This document shows positions 5,195-61,237 of a DNA stretch of 64,000 bases, piece after piece (position 1 is the first letter of the stretch; every line of letters begins with the position of its first letter). Under the pieces are notes generated by a model, which saw only the letters and a list, made by a program, of their open reading frames with translations, did no database searches and had not been told where the DNA came from. The stretch comes from an uncultured Alphaproteobacteria bacterium (GTDB lineage: Bacteria; Pseudomonadota; Alphaproteobacteria; Rs-D84), in the NCBI GenBank assembly GCA_944389495.1, contig CALXMN010000003.1:10862-74861 (forward strand). Reading direction: 5' to 3'. A program made the position numbers and the translations under genes.

Positions 5195-5300
5195 TTTTCT
5201 TATCTCCTGAGTTTCCTTATAAAAAACCACCAAATACATTGGTGGCCAGGAGATTCGAAACAATTACCAGAATTGTGTCACTTATTTGATATTCGTGACC
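5195..5300 (-). promoter_or_regulatory. Structured 5' leader of A copy 1: two hairpins, the second terminator-like (ccaccaatgtatttggtgg + T-tract) just before the RBS
   Basis: Same architecture as the leaders of A copies 3, 4 and 5. Confidence 0.4.
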
Positions 5301-5392
5301 CTCCTGACCAAAAAATCAGGAGTTTATTTATCGTCGTAATAAAAAACAACGCACACGCGCCGTTCAAATATCGACGCTGGTATTCGGGTTTC

Positions 5393-5423
5393 GACACCCC
5401 ATCAATGGAACACCCATTGACAA
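5393..5423. promoter_or_regulatory. Conserved palindromic upstream motif GACACCCCATCAATGGAACACCCATTGACAA (A copy 1)
   Basis: The same motif sits 150-230 bp upstream of A copies 3, 4 and 5. It has an internal inverted repeat, TCAATGG/CCATTGA. Confidence 0.45.
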
Positions 5424-12262: not shown

Positions 12263-13033
12263 TTATTTTTCAAATATTAATACGCGTTGTATGCCGGATA
12301 AATCGTGTTCCACGCGATTAAATTTCCATCCCGCATCTGTAAAGATTTTTTGCACCATTTTTGACATACCATCGCCAATTTCCAGATATATTTTTCCGCC
12401 ACTGCGAATCCATTTGTGTGCGTTTTTTGCGATTGATTCATATGCCGCATATCCGTTGTTTTTTGCATACAGTGCCCGTTTTGGGTCGTGTCGTGCGCCC
12501 GTATTCACACGTAAATCACCACGTGCGATATATGGTGGATTTGAAACGATTACGTCAAATTTTTCTGTAAATGCCCGTGGATTATTAAAATTTCTGTGCA
12601 TAACACGTACCACGTTGTCAAGATTCAGGTTGCGTATATTTCGGCGTGCCACCCGCAACGCGCCGCGTGATACATCCGCCGCCACACCCGACGTGCCGGG
12701 TATGTTTTTTACCAGCGCGGCAATTATACAGCCTGTGCCGGTCCCCAGGTCCAATATATACGGTTTTGCATCTTTACCACAGTCGGCAATTACGGCGGCA
12801 ACCAATGTTTCTGTATCTGGGCGCGGATCCAAGGTATGCCGATTTGTATAAAATTTCAATCCATAAAACCATTTATGATGGATTATTTTCGCAACAGGCA
12901 CCCCGTGCTTTAATGCACGTGCGATATACCAAACTTTTATTCGGGAAAATTTTTGCGTATTTTCAGTAATTACCCGGGCATCGTGTACGTTTCCCACCCG
13001 GGCCAAGATTTCAAACGCTTGATTTATTGTCAT
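12263..13033 (-). CDS. prmC: Release factor glutamine methyltransferase PrmC/HemK
   Basis: NPPY motif (VSNPPYIARGDL) and SAM motif LDLGTGTGCI. Confidence 0.85.
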   Translation of the reverse strand: MTINQAFEILARVGNVHDARVITENTQKFSRIKVWYIARALKHGVPVAKIIHHKWFYGLKFYTNRHTLDPRPDTETLVAAVIADCGKDAKPYILDLGTGTGCIIAALVKNIPGTSGVAADVSRGALRVARRNIRNLNLDNVVRVMHRNFNNPRAFTEKFDVIVSNPPYIARGDLRVNTGARHDPKRALYAKNNGYAAYESIAKNAHKWIRSGGKIYLEIGDGMSKMVQKIFTDAGWKFNRVEHDLSGIQRVLIFEK

Positions 13034-14314: not shown

Positions 14315-14410
14315 AAAGTATGCGCGGTCATAGTTAACATATGGACAAAAATCGTCGCTTGACTTGAATTATAAAATCACATAAAATATTGCATTGATAA
14401 GCAGTTTTTT

Positions 14411-14519
14411 ATGCCGAATTTAAACGTCCGTTTTATCGGGCGTTTTTATTTTATAAAAAAATCCGATTTTCCGCACTTTTTGCTTTTATGTATATGCCGA
14501 AAAAAAACGGACGTTTGGA
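14411..14519. repeat. GCCGAA palindromic element (degenerate copy)
   Basis: ATGCCGAATTTAAACGTCCG...internal hairpin...ATGCCGAAAAAAAACGGACGTTTGGATTCGGC. Same architecture as the elements at 27885 and 49555. It lies directly upstream of A copy 2. Confidence 0.5.
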
Positions 14520-14545
14520 TTCGGCCAAAAATCAGGGGAAAAATA

Positions 14546-14953
14546 ATGGGTGTTTTAAAGACTTTGTTTTTGCTTGTAATCGCAATTACATTCTGCCAAC
14601 CGGCGTCTGCCGTTACCAAATGCGTAAAATTAAATTCATCAACAACGTGTTCCGATTATTCGGGCGCATTCGGTCAATCAAATTGGTCCGCGACATGCGG
14701 TGGCATATCAATACAGGGTGTTACATTTTGTGGTTCGCAAAACGGCGGTTCAGTTGGTGCAACAACCGACGCCGTTACGACCAGTTCAACCAATAAATAT
14801 TGTTGGTGTAAAATGGTATCACCTGCGGTGTCGCGCTGGGTTTTCGCCGGCGCGGATGATCATTGCGCGTACCGTTGCGCGGACGCCTGTGCGGGCTTCG
14901 CTCCGGCCACTGAGACTTTCCGGTCTGCGTTGTTCTCGGGTCTCGGCGATTGA
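14546..14953 (+). CDS. Family A secreted Cys-rich protein (copy 2)
   Basis: RBS aggggaaaaataATG. MGVLKTLFLLVIAITFCQPASAVTKCVKLNSS...NKYCWCKMVSPAVSRWVF...FRSALFSGLGD. Confidence 0.6.
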   Translation: MGVLKTLFLLVIAITFCQPASAVTKCVKLNSSTTCSDYSGAFGQSNWSATCGGISIQGVTFCGSQNGGSVGATTDAVTTSSTNKYCWCKMVSPAVSRWVFAGADDHCAYRCADACAGFAPATETFRSALFSGLGD

Positions 14954-15136: not shown

Positions 15137-15270
15137 CGTCTTTCTCTGCGGTGTCGCGCTGGGTTTTCAACAACGCGAACACGTCGGCCGGTTCTTGCGC
15201 GAACAACGTTCAGAACAATGCGTCTTTCCGGTCCGCGTTGTTCTCGGGTCTCGGCTCCTTTGACAGGAAT
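15137..15270 (+). pseudogene. Promoter-less 3' fragment of a family A gene (candidate silent cassette)
   Basis: Two conserved boxes, ctgcggtgtcgcgctgggttttc and tttccggtc(c/t)gcgttgttctcgggtctcggc, are shared with the 3' end of A copy 2 at 14815-14950. They bracket a divergent ~80-bp segment encoding VSRWVFNNANTSAGSCANNVQNNASFRSALFSGLG. It has no start codon and no signal peptide. Confidence 0.5.
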
Positions 15271-20722: not shown

Positions 20723-20750
20723 GTCAATGGGCGTTCCATTGATGGGGTGT
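20723..20750. promoter_or_regulatory. Conserved palindromic upstream motif (A copy 3): TGTCAATGGGCGTTCCATTGATGGGGTGT
   Basis: Same motif as at 5393, 27129 and 38208. Its orientation relative to the downstream A gene is constant. Confidence 0.45.
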
Positions 20751-20759
20751 GAAGACCTC

Positions 20760-20893
20760 TGCCTTAGCGTCGGAAAATAAGAAAACGTGCGGCGCGTGTA
20801 AATGCGCCGGTTTTAATATTCCGACGATAAATAAACTCCTGACCAACAATGTATTTGGTGGTTTTCTTATTCAGAAAAAACAGGAGTTTGAAA
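20760..20893 (+). promoter_or_regulatory. Structured 5' leader of A copy 3 with a hairpin before RBS caggag
   Basis: Contains ctcctgaccaacaatgtatttggtggttttc, related to the copy 1 leader. Confidence 0.35.
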
Positions 20894-21325
20894 ATGAAAT
20901 TAAAAATTTTGATTGCGGGCGTTGCGGTATTCTGTGTTATCGTTGCGCCGGCTGCGGCGGTTGTAAAGTGTGTAAAATTGACACAAAGTTCAACCTGTAC
21001 ATCAACAACTGCTAACAATTCTGGTCCAGAATGGACCGCAACCTGTGGTGGAACACCAATCAAAGGCATCGGTATTTGCAGCGATAAAAAAGGAAGTTCT
21101 GTCGGCTCAAAATCATCCAGTCTGACCATAGATTACTATACAGACTAAAATAAGTATTGTTGGTGTAAAATTATCAGTCCCGCCGTATCATCACAATGGA
21201 CATACGATGATTATAATTACACTTCGGGGGCTGATTGTGCGCGTGATTGTGCCTATGGCTGTGCCGCAGACATAGAAATAAATGCTGCGCTTCGTTCTTC
21301 GTTATTATATGGTTTTTCTGATTAA
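20894..21325 (+). pseudogene. Family A secreted Cys-rich protein (copy 3), interrupted by one in-frame TAA at 21146-21148
   Basis: MKLKILIAGVAVFCVIVAPAAAVVKCVKLTQSS...TIDYYTD*NKYCWCKIISPAVSSQW...AALRSSLLYGFSD. One frame throughout, with conserved motifs on both sides of the stop. Confidence 0.5.
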
Positions 21326-21341
21326 AAACGGGTAATTAAAA

Positions 21342-21617
21342 ATGAAAAAAATAATATTATTTTTGGCAATTGTGCCGTGTGCATCATTTGCGGCCGCGCC
21401 GTCAACATCGTGTCCATCGGGCACAATGGCCATAAACAAACAATATATGATAATTGGTAATACATCGTGTCCGTCGGGGTATTCATATGTTGGGGCGGCA
21501 TATACGTGCCTTTTGACATATCGCGGCAGTTCGTGTCTGATGTATGCGCCGGTAAACACGGAATACACAGATGCCGCCGGCACATACGAATATACCGCCG
21601 CCTGTCCATTGGAATAA
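21342..21617 (+). CDS. Family B small secreted Cys-rich protein (copy 3)
   Basis: MKKIILFLAIVPCASFAAAPSTSCPSGTMAINKQYMIIGNTSCPSGYSYVGAAYTCL...CLMYAPVNTEYTDAAGTYEYTAACPLE. Confidence 0.6.
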   Translation: MKKIILFLAIVPCASFAAAPSTSCPSGTMAINKQYMIIGNTSCPSGYSYVGAAYTCLLTYRGSSCLMYAPVNTEYTDAAGTYEYTAACPLE

Positions 21618-26532: not shown

Positions 26533-26961
26533 TTAGTCAGACAGATTACTGAACATCGCGGACCGGAAAGACGCATTGTCCGCTGCGCGGTACGCACAGC
26601 TGTACGCGCAACGATAGCCACAATACGACGTCCCGAGGACGTTGTTGTACACCCAAGACGACACGGCCGGAGATACCATTTTGCACCAGCAATATTTGTC
26701 ATCAGTACCGCCACTAATTTCCAAAGCCGTCGCTGTCTGGCCAATTGAACTGCCACTTGTGCTGGAACATTGACTTATGCCCCTTATTGCGATACTTGTT
26801 CCACTGGTGGTACAATTTGATGTCCAGTCAACAACATTATACCCAGGCTCAACAAACGAACACGTTGTTGATGATGACAGTTTTACGCATTTTGTGACGG
26901 CCGCGGCCGGTGGGATTGTGGCCGCACAAATCAGACCCGCGATTAATATTTTTGATTTCAT
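26533..26961 (-). CDS. Family A secreted Cys-rich protein (copy 4)
   Basis: RBS aaggag. MKSKILIAGLICAATIPPAAAVTKCVKLSSSTTC...DDKYCWCKMVSPAVSSWVY...ASFRSAMFSNLSD. Confidence 0.6.
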   Translation of the reverse strand: MKSKILIAGLICAATIPPAAAVTKCVKLSSSTTCSFVEPGYNVVDWTSNCTTSGTSIAIRGISQCSSTSGSSIGQTATALEISGGTDDKYCWCKMVSPAVSSWVYNNVLGTSYCGYRCAYSCAYRAADNASFRSAMFSNLSD

Positions 26962-27078
26962 TGTGAACACTCCTTGTGTTTGGGTAAAACAAAAACCACC
27001 AAATTTAAGGTGGTTGGAGGTTCATAGCTATATCAGGTATAGTGTGCTTATTCTATATATTCGCAGCCCTCCAACCCG
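26962..27078 (-). promoter_or_regulatory. Conserved structured leader of A copy 4: long-range helix GGTTGGAGG/CCTCCAACC, then terminator-like hairpin CCACCTTAAATTTGGTGG + T-tract, then RBS
   Basis: About 100 nt, nearly identical to 38050-38165 upstream of A copy 5. Confidence 0.45.
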
Positions 27079-27128
27079 AAACAGTTGGAGCATTTTTACA
27101 TCTTGGTTTGATGCCTGAAAACGGGCTA

Positions 27129-27160
27129 TGACACCCCATCAATGGAACACCCATTGACAA
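27129..27160. promoter_or_regulatory. Conserved palindromic upstream motif (A copy 4): TGACACCCCATCAATGGAACACCCATTGACAA
   Basis: See 5393, 20723 and 38208. Confidence 0.45.
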
Positions 27161-27270
27161 CAGTTATTATAATCACAACAAAAATTCATTTGCAATATGA
27201 AAAATAAATCCTTTGATTTTAGTACGCGGTGCATATAAAATGTAAAACATAAATAAACAAGGAGTTGTCT

Positions 27271-38049: not shown

Positions 38050-38165
38050 CCTTGTTTTCATTGCGAATGAAAAAACCACCAAATTTAAGGTGGTTGGAGG
38101 TTCATAGCTATATCAGGTATAGTGTGCTTATTCTATATATTCGCAACCCTCCAACCCGAAAGTGG
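38050..38165 (-). promoter_or_regulatory. Conserved structured leader of A copy 5
   Basis: Near-identical to 26962-27078. Confidence 0.45.
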
Positions 38166-38207
38166 AGGTGATTTTTTATGTCATCTCTGACAATTACAAA
38201 GGGCTAC

Positions 38208-38237
38208 TACACCCCATCAGTGAATACCCACTGACGG
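38208..38237. promoter_or_regulatory. Conserved palindromic upstream motif, variant TACACCCCATCAGTGAATACCCACTGACGG (A copy 5)
   Basis: The inverted repeat changes from CAATGG/CCATTG to CAGTG/CACTG. The palindrome is kept. Confidence 0.45.
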
Positions 38238-60159: not shown

Positions 60160-60475
60160 AATTATATTCCTGGCCTGGATTATAGCGCACACATTGCCCG
60201 TTTCAATAAAAGATTCCCGATAATAAAAACTTGTTAACGAAACACATTTGTGTTAACCTGTGCAACGACGTGGGGAATTCCCGCGTTGGGGCATCTAAAC
60301 CTCTATGCTGTGTGTCCGTGGGGACATAAAATACCCTCCAACTCTTTTGGTTGGGGGACGGTGAATATATTGAATAAACCGTGCTATCTCACAGTATATA
60401 GTTTAGAACCTCCAACCACCTGATTTTTATCTGGTGGTTTTTTCGTTAACAAAATCGAAAAAAGGGTTCTAAAAA

Positions 60476-61237
60476 ATGAAGAAATCACTAATGTTCATCG
60501 TGGTGTGTGGACTGACAGGGCGGGCACTTGCCGGGTCTTTAAGTTGCACATCTACATATAATTCTTTACCATCGGGCTATTCTGCCGGCGGATCTGGCAC
60601 GTCGCCCAGTCATTGTTTAAGTTCTTATACTGGTTACCAATGTAACAGCAGTACACGCCAATGCGACACGGTGCAAAATTGTACCTCGTGTACATCGGGA
60701 TATTACCCCAGCCAGATTACCGTCCCCAGCAGTGGTGTTTGTTCTACTGTTACGTTTTCTTCGTGTTGTACCCAGTGCTATGATTGCACCAGCGATACCG
60801 ATTACCAATATTACAGTCCCGGCTATCTGCGCAAAGCAAATCGTTGGTGTAATTGTGGTGTTTGTGAAACATCGTACGTCTATAAGTGCGCCGACGGATA
60901 CTATGGCAACCCCGGCGATCAGCCAACCGGATGCGAACCGTGCAAAGAATGCGAAAACTGTGAATCAGACACCGAATGGAAACCCCAACAAATAGAAGGA
61001 TGGGTTGTTAAAGTAACCAGAACTTGTGAATGTGATGGCAGCTGTGTGATAGATAAAATTAGCAATGCGTGTGCTGCAGGGTATTATATGTCGTCTGGTT
61101 GCACCCGATGTCCGGGCGACGGTGATTCGGCCGTGGCCAGCTGGAATATAACAGACTGTTTTATTCCGGGGGGACAAACTCTTTCAGATGAAACTGGATC
61201 TTACGAGTATATATCGGACTGCTATTACAGTTTTTAA
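60476..61237 (+). CDS. Large Cys-rich secreted protein (253 aa). Hypothetical.
   Basis: Signal peptide. Many CxxC / GYY repeats. The C-terminal ETGSYEYISDCYYSF is related to the family B TEY..GTYEF..C motif. Confidence 0.5.
   Translation: MKKSLMFIVVCGLTGRALAGSLSCTSTYNSLPSGYSAGGSGTSPSHCLSSYTGYQCNSSTRQCDTVQNCTSCTSGYYPSQITVPSSGVCSTVTFSSCCTQCYDCTSDTDYQYYSPGYLRKANRWCNCGVCETSYVYKCADGYYGNPGDQPTGCEPCKECENCESDTEWKPQQIEGWVVKVTRTCECDGSCVIDKISNACAAGYYMSSGCTRCPGDGDSAVASWNITDCFIPGGQTLSDETGSYEYISDCYYSF

Follow-up and report, generated by a model that had tools for sequence, protein, structure and literature searches.

A conserved leader RNA with a terminator-like hairpin and alternative pairings precedes secreted-protein genes in Candidatus Enterousia / Rs-D84 Alphaproteobacteria: a candidate attenuator or riboswitch-like element

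The described systems that lie closest to the leader RNA analysed here are attenuators, riboswitches, protein-dependent antitermination leaders and RNA thermometers. In the trp, his and pyrBI attenuators, an intrinsic terminator is located in the 5′ leader just before the first gene, and a middle segment pairs either with an upstream or with a downstream segment, the latter pairing encroaching on the terminator stem. Terminator-platform riboswitches are cis-acting and combine a multi-helix junction with mutually exclusive aptamer-side and antiterminator pairings, and the c-di-GMP-I riboswitch (GEMM-I) occurs in many copies per genome before surface, secreted or virulence genes, and not before the genes of one metabolic pathway. 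Protein antitermination leaders (BglG/SacY-RAT, PyrR, TRAP and ANTAR) contain a leader terminator and a competing structure, between which a bound protein could decide, and the ROSE and fourU thermometers and translational riboswitches contain a strand complementary to the Shine-Dalgarno sequence (SD), which a competing strand could free. Here, we describe a leader RNA that resembles each of these in part. It was found in a stretch of 64,000 nucleotides (hereafter the window) from contig CALXMN010000003.1 of an uncultured alphaproteobacterium of the lineage Rs-D84 (GCA_944389495.1). Our sequence comparisons indicate that it is a real and conserved, previously undescribed structured leader RNA family of Candidatus Enterousia / Rs-D84 Alphaproteobacteria. 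Judging from these comparisons and from structure modelling, it is likely to be a bistable attenuator or riboswitch-like leader, off by default and transcribed from its own promoter, which precedes genes encoding secreted or surface proteins; from these patterns we infer termination, the direction of switching and a trigger.

The element is described with its fourth copy in the window, on the minus strand, as the reference. An earlier note had flagged about 100 nt before the start codon of this gene, a member of a protein family here called family A, as a conserved leader containing a terminator-like hairpin. The strings quoted there are all present on the minus strand, namely GGTTGGAGG (27076-27068), CCTCCAACC (27020-27012), the hairpin, the T5 run, AAGGAG and the ATG at 26961, and the region is indeed conserved. 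However, in an alignment of four window copies the conservation runs ~90-130 nt further upstream, and the flagged span covered just the segment X′ through the start codon. The unit has about twice the flagged length, and the flagged hairpin is the tail end of a larger folded leader RNA of ~170-220 nt, which begins at a promoter-like site and a 5′-terminal hairpin, P1 (Table 1). The 5′ part of the unit consists of the promoter, P1 followed by GGGGUGU (G7), strands a and b, the hairpin P3, an A-rich linker, X, a loop and X′. The 3′ part consists of the hairpin P5, CACAAUU, b′, RAUU, a′, AA, X2, the terminator hairpin T, a U-tract, ~20-35 nt, the SD and the start codon. In a "long" class of copies, P3 is lengthened by a GC-rich inner hairpin. 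The P1-G7 block (TCAATGG-GTGTT-CCATTGA-TGGGGTGT in DNA) is the most sequence-conserved part, with 27/27 identity between copies 1 and 4 and one different base in copy 3. The promoter hexamers and their spacing are also kept before other copies (CTTGCAT/CTTGTAT ... TATAAT), as seen in the window alignment and in the upstream flanks of other loci.

Further copies were collected from sequence databases. When one bacterial or archaeal genome per species was scanned for the exact P1-G7 motif, 31 loci were obtained, 25 of which were true copies from 14 species represented by metagenome-assembled genomes (MAGs) of Candidatus Enterousia or uncultured gut Alphaproteobacteria, including one contig binned as Bacteroides; the other six were chance matches within genes of unrelated taxa. 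A metagenome scan added 11 copies, and a profile hidden Markov model (HMM) search with nhmmer identified additional copies without the exact motif, among them the fifth of the window. While the initial sampling demanded the P1-G7 motif, the HMM and a protein-first sample, consisting of the loci of six family A homologues (L052-L060; L numbers denote loci), later relaxed that demand. In the protein-first sample, L052 lacks the leader, L053 and L054 have a very divergent leader of a third class alone, and the rest have recognisable leaders; the 20-kb flanks hold extra leaders before other small open reading frames (ORFs). In total, 53 distinct copies were collected, five of them in the window and the others in gut metagenomes and in at least 14 Candidatus Enterousia / Rs-D84 MAG species. 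The 429 homologues of the family A protein are all unnamed or hypothetical proteins from Candidatus Enterousia.

Searches with Rfam 15 (4227 models) at the gathering threshold identified three tRNAs alone in the window. With leader copy 4 at E<=10, the best matches scored 10-16 bits against thresholds of 34-50, assigning it to no family, and in three further loci at E<=1 nothing on the leader scored above threshold, the best match being sRNA-Xcc1 with 34 bits against 53. The covariance models of c-di-GMP-I and c-di-GMP-II (GEMM-I and GEMM-II) gave no match on leader copy 4 at E<=10, nor on the three loci at E<=1. Literature searches covering Enterousia, Rs-D84 and surveys of structured RNAs gave genome descriptions alone, none of which mentions this leader RNA.

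The hairpin of copy 4 consists of CCACC (27013-27009), the loop TTAAATTT and GGTGG (27000-26996), followed by T5 (26995-26991), and has the sequence pattern of an intrinsic (Rho-independent) terminator, a G+C hairpin with an immediate U-tract. A consensus scan called the hairpin terminator-like in copies 4, 5 and 1, with 2-5 sites as compared to 0.2-0.3 expected in shuffled sequences, and the presence of such a hairpin in the leader, as proposed earlier, is not due to chance. The hairpin and the U-tract are kept in 53 of the 53 copies, with UUUU directly after the stem in 46, and a co-oriented ORF always follows the hairpin at a distance of 20-60 nt or, in rare cases, 100-150 nt. With 5-7 bp, of which four are G-C pairs, the stem is short, and it is weaker than the terminators of neighbouring genes.

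An alignment made with MAFFT and analysed with RNAalifold recovered P1, P3, P5, X′:X2 and a further helix, h6, whereas a:a′, b:b′ and the terminator went undetected because MAFFT misaligned the two length classes. An anchor-based structural alignment was therefore built, containing 36 sequences and later 53, with hand-annotated divergent copies; position alone determined the placement of a, a′, X2 and the terminator. In the 36 sequences, 92.6% of the cells were paired in the ground-state structure (Fold I), as compared to 75.3% in column shuffles and 33-49% with slid partners; 29 pairs changed on both sides, and the covariation score was 0.419 against 0.133, with none of 500 shuffles reaching these values. 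In the 53 sequences, 99.8% of the 424 cells of P1 were paired, with compensatory variants such as GUCGGCGG/UCGCCGAU, GUUGGCAG/CUGCCAAU and GAAUCCAA/UUGGGUUC. Covariation across the copies, proposed earlier as a check, is also strong in the long-range helices. In a:a′, 98.7% of the cells were paired and five of the six pairs covaried; in b:b′, 99.0% were paired and all four Watson-Crick types were present in each of the first five columns. The helix X:X′ tracked the switch between sequence classes, from UGA:UCA to AA:UU to CCCGAC:GUCGGG. G·U pairs outnumbered A·C pairs by 111 to 5, and the structure is therefore that of an RNA transcribed in the direction of the genes. The four window leaders folded better than dinucleotide shuffles, with z-scores of -3.2, -5.4, -6.4 and -6.1. 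The 5′ leader thus contains a covarying, conserved structured domain, as riboswitches do.

The same data bear on the idea of an element acting at the DNA level, which would be either bound by a dimeric repressor as its operator (TCAATGG-N5-CCATTGA, overlapping +1) or a cassette whose recombination varies the surface proteins. The P1 palindrome is perfect and its block identical in copies 1 and 4, and recombination between leaders is clear from chimeras and from deletions between the X and X2 repeats. Yet the sequence of the palindrome varies freely while remaining complementary, G·U pairs included, the G·U to A·C counts are strongly strand-asymmetric, and helices with strands 100-170 nt apart covary. 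Recombination is real and shuffles the element, but leaves its structure unexplained. The operator was rejected on account of the free compensatory variation and the asymmetry, and a DNA-level element of either kind is hardly credible.

A second set of pairings is conserved in the same sequences. X′ (GGUUGGAGG / GGUCAGGAGG) has two complements, the upstream X and the downstream X2, which are near-copies of each other, and X′:X2 was paired in 98.6% of 506 cells in the 53 sequences (98.6-99.1% across alignments). X, X′ and X2 read CUCCUGA, UCAGGAG and CUCCUGA in a first class, CUCCAAC, GUUGGAG and CUCCAAC in a second, and CCCGAC, GUCGGG and CCCGAC in a third, found in the very divergent L053; in L056, the terminal C:G pair of X2:X′ is swapped for A:U. 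Since all three segments change together, both pairings appear to matter, as the third segment would otherwise have no reason to follow. The helix h6 was paired in 98.1% of the cells, with the variants ACAAUU/AAUUGU, ACUAUA/UAUAGU, GCUAUU/AAUAGU and AUCAU/AUGAU, and b′ either pairs with b or is placed in the loop of the h6 hairpin. G7 pairs either with CCUC of X2, which extends a:a′, or with the CCC/CCUC that follows a; in L053, G7 and both of its partners change together (GGGA/UCCC/UCCC). X2 accordingly has three conserved possible partners: X′ (9-10 bp), G7 (GGGGU:ACCUC) and the SD region. RNAalifold independently picked the set G7:CCC, X′:X2 and h6 (Fold II) from the crude alignment. The leader thus has the mutually exclusive pairings of a riboswitch expression platform (X′ with X or X2, b′ with b or in the h6 loop, G7 with CCYC or X2), although this mutual exclusivity is one that we infer from the topology. 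A pairing of the P1 loop (GNGUU) with the conserved (G/A)CAC before AAUU was discarded, since by eye the variable position of the loop has no matching change in the alignment.

At equilibrium, Fold I is predicted to dominate. The Boltzmann pair probabilities were 0.95 for a:a′, 0.93 for b:b′, 0.96 for X:X′ and 0.78 for the terminator, but ~0.01 for X′:X2, and forcing X′:X2 cost 12.7 kcal/mol on average over Fold I (standard deviation 3.7). The sole exception was copy 5, a chimera, in which Fold II (-48.0) was more stable than Fold I (-44.4). The long-range helix of the earlier note, which is X′:X2, is therefore real and conserved but not part of the ground state, and is best read as an antiterminator alternative. 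That Fold I alone explains the thermodynamic ensemble, and that P1 is placed within a few nt of where transcription is predicted to begin, as are known hairpins that stabilise 5′ ends, would also suit a static 5′ untranslated region, which confers mRNA stability or translation (a 5′-terminal hairpin against 5′-end-dependent decay) and in which the alternative pairings are by-products of CUCC/GGAG repeats. A constitutive terminator-shaped hairpin with a U-tract right before the SD would, however, be counter-productive, and both the tracking of X′ by X2 over three classes and the compensatory changes of h6 and of G7/CCYC need a second fold, which makes a static leader highly improbable.

We propose a mechanism in which the leader is transcribed from its own sigma-70-type promoter and folds in one of two ways. 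Fold I would consist of P1 and a long closing helix, made up of G7 paired with the 5′ part of X2 (GGGGU:ACCUC), a:a′ and b:b′, enclosing a four-way junction of P3, P4 (X:X′) and P5. With X′ locked to X and the 3′ CC of X2 free, the terminator would form and transcription would stop ~25 nt before the SD; the default state would be off because Fold I is a deep minimum. In Fold II, G7 would fold back onto the CCC/CCUC after a, b′ would be trapped in the h6 loop, and X′ would pair with X2 over 9-10 bp. This pairing would strip two basal G-C pairs from the terminator and hold the anti-SD-like CCUCC away from the SD, allowing read-through and translation. At intrinsic terminators, the stem must reach the U-tract for the transcript to be released, and the removal of the two G-C pairs beside the U-tract is therefore predicted to strongly cut termination. 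The design would correspond to a 1:2 / 2:3 / 3:4 attenuator with 1:2 embedded in a large conserved junction. The junction is most likely the sensor, and the sensor part would then be located upstream of the coordinates flagged earlier. To switch on, something would need to act on the early-transcribed P1-G7, a, b and X during synthesis; alternatively, a ligand might stabilise Fold I against a kinetically favoured Fold II. The sensor could be an aptamer that binds a metabolite or second messenger and stabilises Fold I, to which the conserved junction and the P5 loop would be suited, or the target of a protein that binds to the near-invariant P1-GGGGUGU block. Two variants in which X′ through X2 is deleted, and the antiterminator thus removed, are found before broken genes, which fits the model. 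Attenuation or antitermination, as suggested in the earlier note, is the reading best supported by the comparative analysis, given the hairpin in all copies and the conserved alternative pairings, but with a larger element, another ground state and a wider set of genes than proposed there.

The pairing of X2 with the SD region raises a different possibility, namely a purely translational switch or RNA thermometer, in which the strand of a′ and X2 (..UCAACCUCCUG) masks the SD region (CAGGAGAUUGA) with no termination of transcription, the hairpin with its U-run caps a longer helix, and the strand GGGGUGU plus a competes to unmask the SD. In one example, the end of a′ plus X2 can form pairs with the SD region at 10 of 11 positions, and in the minimum free energy folds of copies 5, 1 and 3 X2 (X in copy 3) is placed on the SD with the hairpin inside. 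The X2:SD duplexes had a mean of -12.3 kcal/mol as compared to -7.4 for the SD regions of other window genes, but part of this effect is due to strong SDs, since the anti-SD gave -9.0 with the SDs of the element and -6.45 with the controls. The SDs of the long class are CAGGAG, in which the C matches X2 and not the 16S rRNA, and the probability of a:a′ drops from 0.95 to 0.67 when the mRNA is extended. Against this, X2 pairs only weakly better with its own than with swapped SDs (-13.6 vs -12.6; 35 of 2000 permutations, and 157 of 2000 in the short class), and in copy 4 the pairing is limited to 4 bp. The duplex energies of a′ with the sequence downstream of its own or of swapped SDs also differed weakly and were not relied on. 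A translational switch would moreover leave the U-tract in 46 of 53 copies and the covariation of X′ and h6 unexplained, and we consider it unlikely as the sole explanation. It is compatible with attenuation as a second layer, not as a replacement, and SD masking by X2 is in that role plausible but secondary.

Every copy (~50) is followed by a co-oriented ORF. Several unrelated families are represented among the encoded proteins, almost all of which have a signal peptide and many of which are Cys-rich, and a Pfam search on ten of them gave no family except two sub-threshold Flg_new repeats. The earlier note had described the leader as conserved across family A paralogs; instead, it precedes many unrelated genes, and one type of family A paralog (copy 2 and L052) has a different upstream region. 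For both reasons, family A duplication does not account for the conservation of the leader, which far exceeds that of the genes downstream of it. A C-terminal Cys-rich module without a match in Pfam (C-x2-G-Y-Y-G ... C-x2-C-P ... S-C-Y ... G-T/S-x-Y ... C-Y-Y) recurs in many of the proteins and may, from its sequence, be a common anchoring or export domain. Pfam matches of neighbouring genes were to housekeeping proteins (LemA, AlaRS, BamD and glycosyltransferases), with no obvious RNA-binding regulator. In family A loci, a second small ORF (~92 aa, family B), likewise with a signal peptide and Cys-rich, is located ~10-25 nt after each family A gene, and the leader would therefore control two-gene operons.

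The association with ORFs also bears on whether the element is a free-standing gene of ~170-220 nt for a trans-acting small RNA (sRNA), with its own promoter and terminator, from which the downstream genes are expressed by incidental read-through, and whose action is, for instance, on other mRNAs through its CCUCC/GGAGG motifs or on an RNA-binding protein, which it titrates. A promoter-like site and a terminator-like end, a complex conserved structure and many copies per genome would all be expected of such a gene. It is nevertheless very unlikely, because every one of the ~50 copies is tied to a co-oriented ORF and the 20-35 nt before the SD leave no space for a separate promoter in most copies. 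In addition, the helix sequences vary with the pairing kept, unlike multi-copy trans-acting sRNAs, which retain their seeds, and the alternative pairing engages the terminator base and the local SD.

Compared to the trp, his and pyrBI attenuators, in which the layout of terminator and competing segments is similar, the leader has no conserved leader peptide, its 1:2 helix is one arm of a large covarying four-way junction, and the overlap with the terminator comprises two basal G-C pairs alone. A leader peptide was rejected, as the sole recurrent start is the AUG in GAUGGGG, from which ORFs range from 6 aa to no stop within the element; the stops are scattered over nine segments, and the AUG is absent in divergent copies. 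A T-box leader was also rejected, since there was no Rfam T-box match and the downstream genes encode secreted proteins, not aminoacyl-tRNA synthetases or amino-acid genes. The leader shares with GEMM-I its many copies before surface or secreted genes and with riboswitches in general its junction and exclusive pairings, but its most invariant block is the 5′ hairpin with the G-run and not the junction nucleotides. As in protein antitermination leaders, a bound protein could decide between the structures, with the P1-GGGGUGU block as a possible site; however, RAT, the PyrR loop, GAG/UAG repeats and dual ANTAR hexaloops are absent, and none was found via Rfam. The anti-SD-like CCUCC of X2 recalls thermometers and translational riboswitches, but the leader is much larger, has a U-tract terminator and extra alternative helices, and its SD pairing is weak in some copies, including copy 4. 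A bolder version of the proposal, in which a new class of riboswitch has the four-way junction as its aptamer for a small molecule or second messenger and switches the whole secreted and surface repertoire as one regulon, with dozens of copies in a sub-megabase genome of a genome-reduced, probably host- or partner-dependent gut organism, is possible but tentative.

Several observations weigh against a bistable attenuator. According to the energy model, Fold II is beyond equilibrium access and would need a kinetic route or a factor. X′:X2 overlaps the terminator by 2 nt only (1 nt in the copy at 12619 in L055), and the abolition of termination through so short an overlap is a prediction from the behaviour of intrinsic terminators in general. 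The alignment was author-built with anchors, and a bias towards pairing enters through b, for which the best complement was sought. The cell counts overstate the number of independent events because the sequences are related and recombining. The 98.6% pairing of X′:X2 compares to 95.5% in shuffles, as most X/X′/X2 columns are invariant, and the class-level covariation of these segments amounts to ~3-4 independent events. Instead of alternating, h6 and b:b′ might form at the same time, as a loop-strand pseudoknot. The gene context, consisting of proteins of unknown function, hints at no ligand, and one copy (12619-12775 in L055/L056) precedes a 52-aa HTH_3 (XRE-type) ORF (12794-12952), which could be a regulator within the same regulon.

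The window contains five copies of the leader (Table 1). Copies 4 and 5 (26989-27158 and 38069-38235) differ by one mismatch in ~85 nt from X′ through the terminator, due to a recent recombination that made copy 5 a chimera with a broken b:b′. In copy 1, the pair that the earlier note took as analogous, CTCCTGA..TCAGGAG at 5322-5301 (slightly outside 5195-5300), is X:X′ and thus a different helix from GGTTGGAGG..CCTCCAACC; the copy also has a true X2 analogue, CTCCTGG. Copy 3, described there as degenerate, instead has a clean loss of X′ through X2 between the direct repeats X and X2. The same deletion is found in L028; the two deletions are independent, and both variants are located before broken genes. 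The fifth leader precedes an ORF (60476-61237) for a 253-aa secreted Cys-rich protein of a family other than A.

Table 1. Coordinates of the parts of the leader (reference copy 4), its copies and associated genes; positions refer to the window unless a locus is given.
Feature	Position	Strand	Description
Promoter-like site, copy 4	27166..27195	-	TTGCAA-18 nt-TATAAT; 10/12 consensus matches (scan)
P1 5′-terminal hairpin and G7	27131..27158	-	GUCAAUGG-GUGUU-CCAUUGAU then GGGGUGU (G7); hairpin itself 27158-27138
Closing-helix 5′ strands	27114..27130	-	a = CAUAGC (27130-27125), linker CCGUUU, b = UCAGG (27118-27114)
P3 hairpin (CAUCA..AGAUG)	27099..27113	-	All 5 pairs covary
X (segment 1)	27084..27090	-	CUCCAAC; pairs with X′ in ground-state hairpin P4; core pairs 100% kept
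X′ (segment 2, switching strand)	27068..27076	-	GGUUGGAGG; partner either X (P4) or X2
P5 hairpin	27045..27065	-	Conserved loop GAAUAUAUAGAAUAA (from consensus); stem covaries GC/CG/UA
3′ strands	27023..27044	-	CACUAUA, h6 5′ arm (27044-27038); b′ CCUGA (27037-27033); UAUA, h6 3′ arm (27032-27029); a′ GCUAUG (27028-27023)
X2 (segment 3)	27012..27020	-	CCUCCAACC; anti-SD-like CCUCC; last two C are the terminator stem base
Terminator-like hairpin	26991..27015	-	(AA)CCACC-UUAAAUUU-GGUGG(UU) then U-tract; stem covaries, third pair A-U / G-C / G·U
SD and start codon, copy 4 gene	26959..26975	-	AAGGAG 26975-26970; ATG 26961-26959
Controlled gene, family A copy 4	26533..26961	-	142-aa signal-peptide, Cys-rich protein; no Pfam match; followed by second small secreted ORF
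Leader copy 1, long class	5220..5421	-	X/X′/X2 = CUCCUGA/UCAGGAG/CUCCUGG; downstream gene with in-frame stop
Leader copy 3, deletion variant	20723..20868	+	X fused to terminator; X′, P5, b′, a′ and X2 lost; downstream gene with in-frame stop
Leader copy 5, chimera	38069..38235	-	5′ half L011-like; X′ through terminator copy-4-like; b:b′ broken, a:a′ 5/6
Fifth, divergent leader	60267..60445	+	P1 GACGUGGG/CCCGCGUU; G7 GGGGCAU; a CUAAAC / a′ GUUUAG; X′ GGUUGGGGG; nhmmer E = 1.3e-14, hand annotation
Family B sites	from 26516; from 37597; 4756-4481; 21344-21616; L053 10447-10725	-; -; -; +; 	Downstream of family A
Carriers of the Cys-rich module	60476-61237; downstream ORFs of L005, L006, L008, L016, L029 and L039		

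Segments have been exchanged between leaders by recombination, producing chimeras in copy 5, L014 and L034/L044. The locus L014 has a copy-4-type leader joined to a copy-5-type SD and gene, and the sequences of L034 and L044 nearly coincide as far as a′, which itself differs (GUUUCG vs GUUCUC), such that a:a′ pairs at 4/6 positions in L034. In one MAG, an identical extension of ~100 nt, GTTGTGGTGATGTGACCAATGACAATCCACCGATTG..., separates the start codon from the terminator in three leaders (L003 36-104, L004 5567-5635 and L010 ~340-441). The GC-rich inner hairpin of the long-class P3 (5344-5365 on the minus strand of the window; L001-L029) is followed by a U-run and was also called by the terminator scan; it could be a second internal terminator-like signal, or a stable stem with its U-run paired to the A-rich 5′ strand.

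Family A copy 2 (14546) has no such leader upstream. What is conserved upstream of this copy (14380-14556, plus strand) and of its orthologue P0039 (L052 9800-10000) is another region, in which a pair of hairpin-like units (AUGCCGAA...ACGNNCGUUU...UUCGGC) immediately precedes the SD; from its sequence, this region may be a second, separate regulatory element. In-frame stops are present in family A copies 1 (5194-4775, minus strand) and 3 (20894-21322, plus strand), and there is a C-terminal fragment of a further copy at 15148-15252 (plus strand). By its sequences, the family A gene family appears to be turning over.

Candidatus Enterousia (order Rs-D84) consists of uncultured gut bacteria with genomes of less than ~1 Mb that lack a tricarboxylic acid cycle and a respiratory chain (PMC12306168). 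With five copies in 64 kb, and two or three within 8 kb in neighbouring loci, the leader is probably at the head of one of the cell's largest regulons. This candidate regulon consists of signal-peptide, Cys-rich proteins, which are likely to form the interface with host or partner cells. As a candidate for a new class of attenuator or riboswitch, the leader RNA is clean and amenable to experiment, with natural "mutants" built in, namely the deletion of the antiterminator and the chimera that breaks the closing helix. The trigger of the leader would reveal which signal these bacteria, with their tiny genomes, sense.

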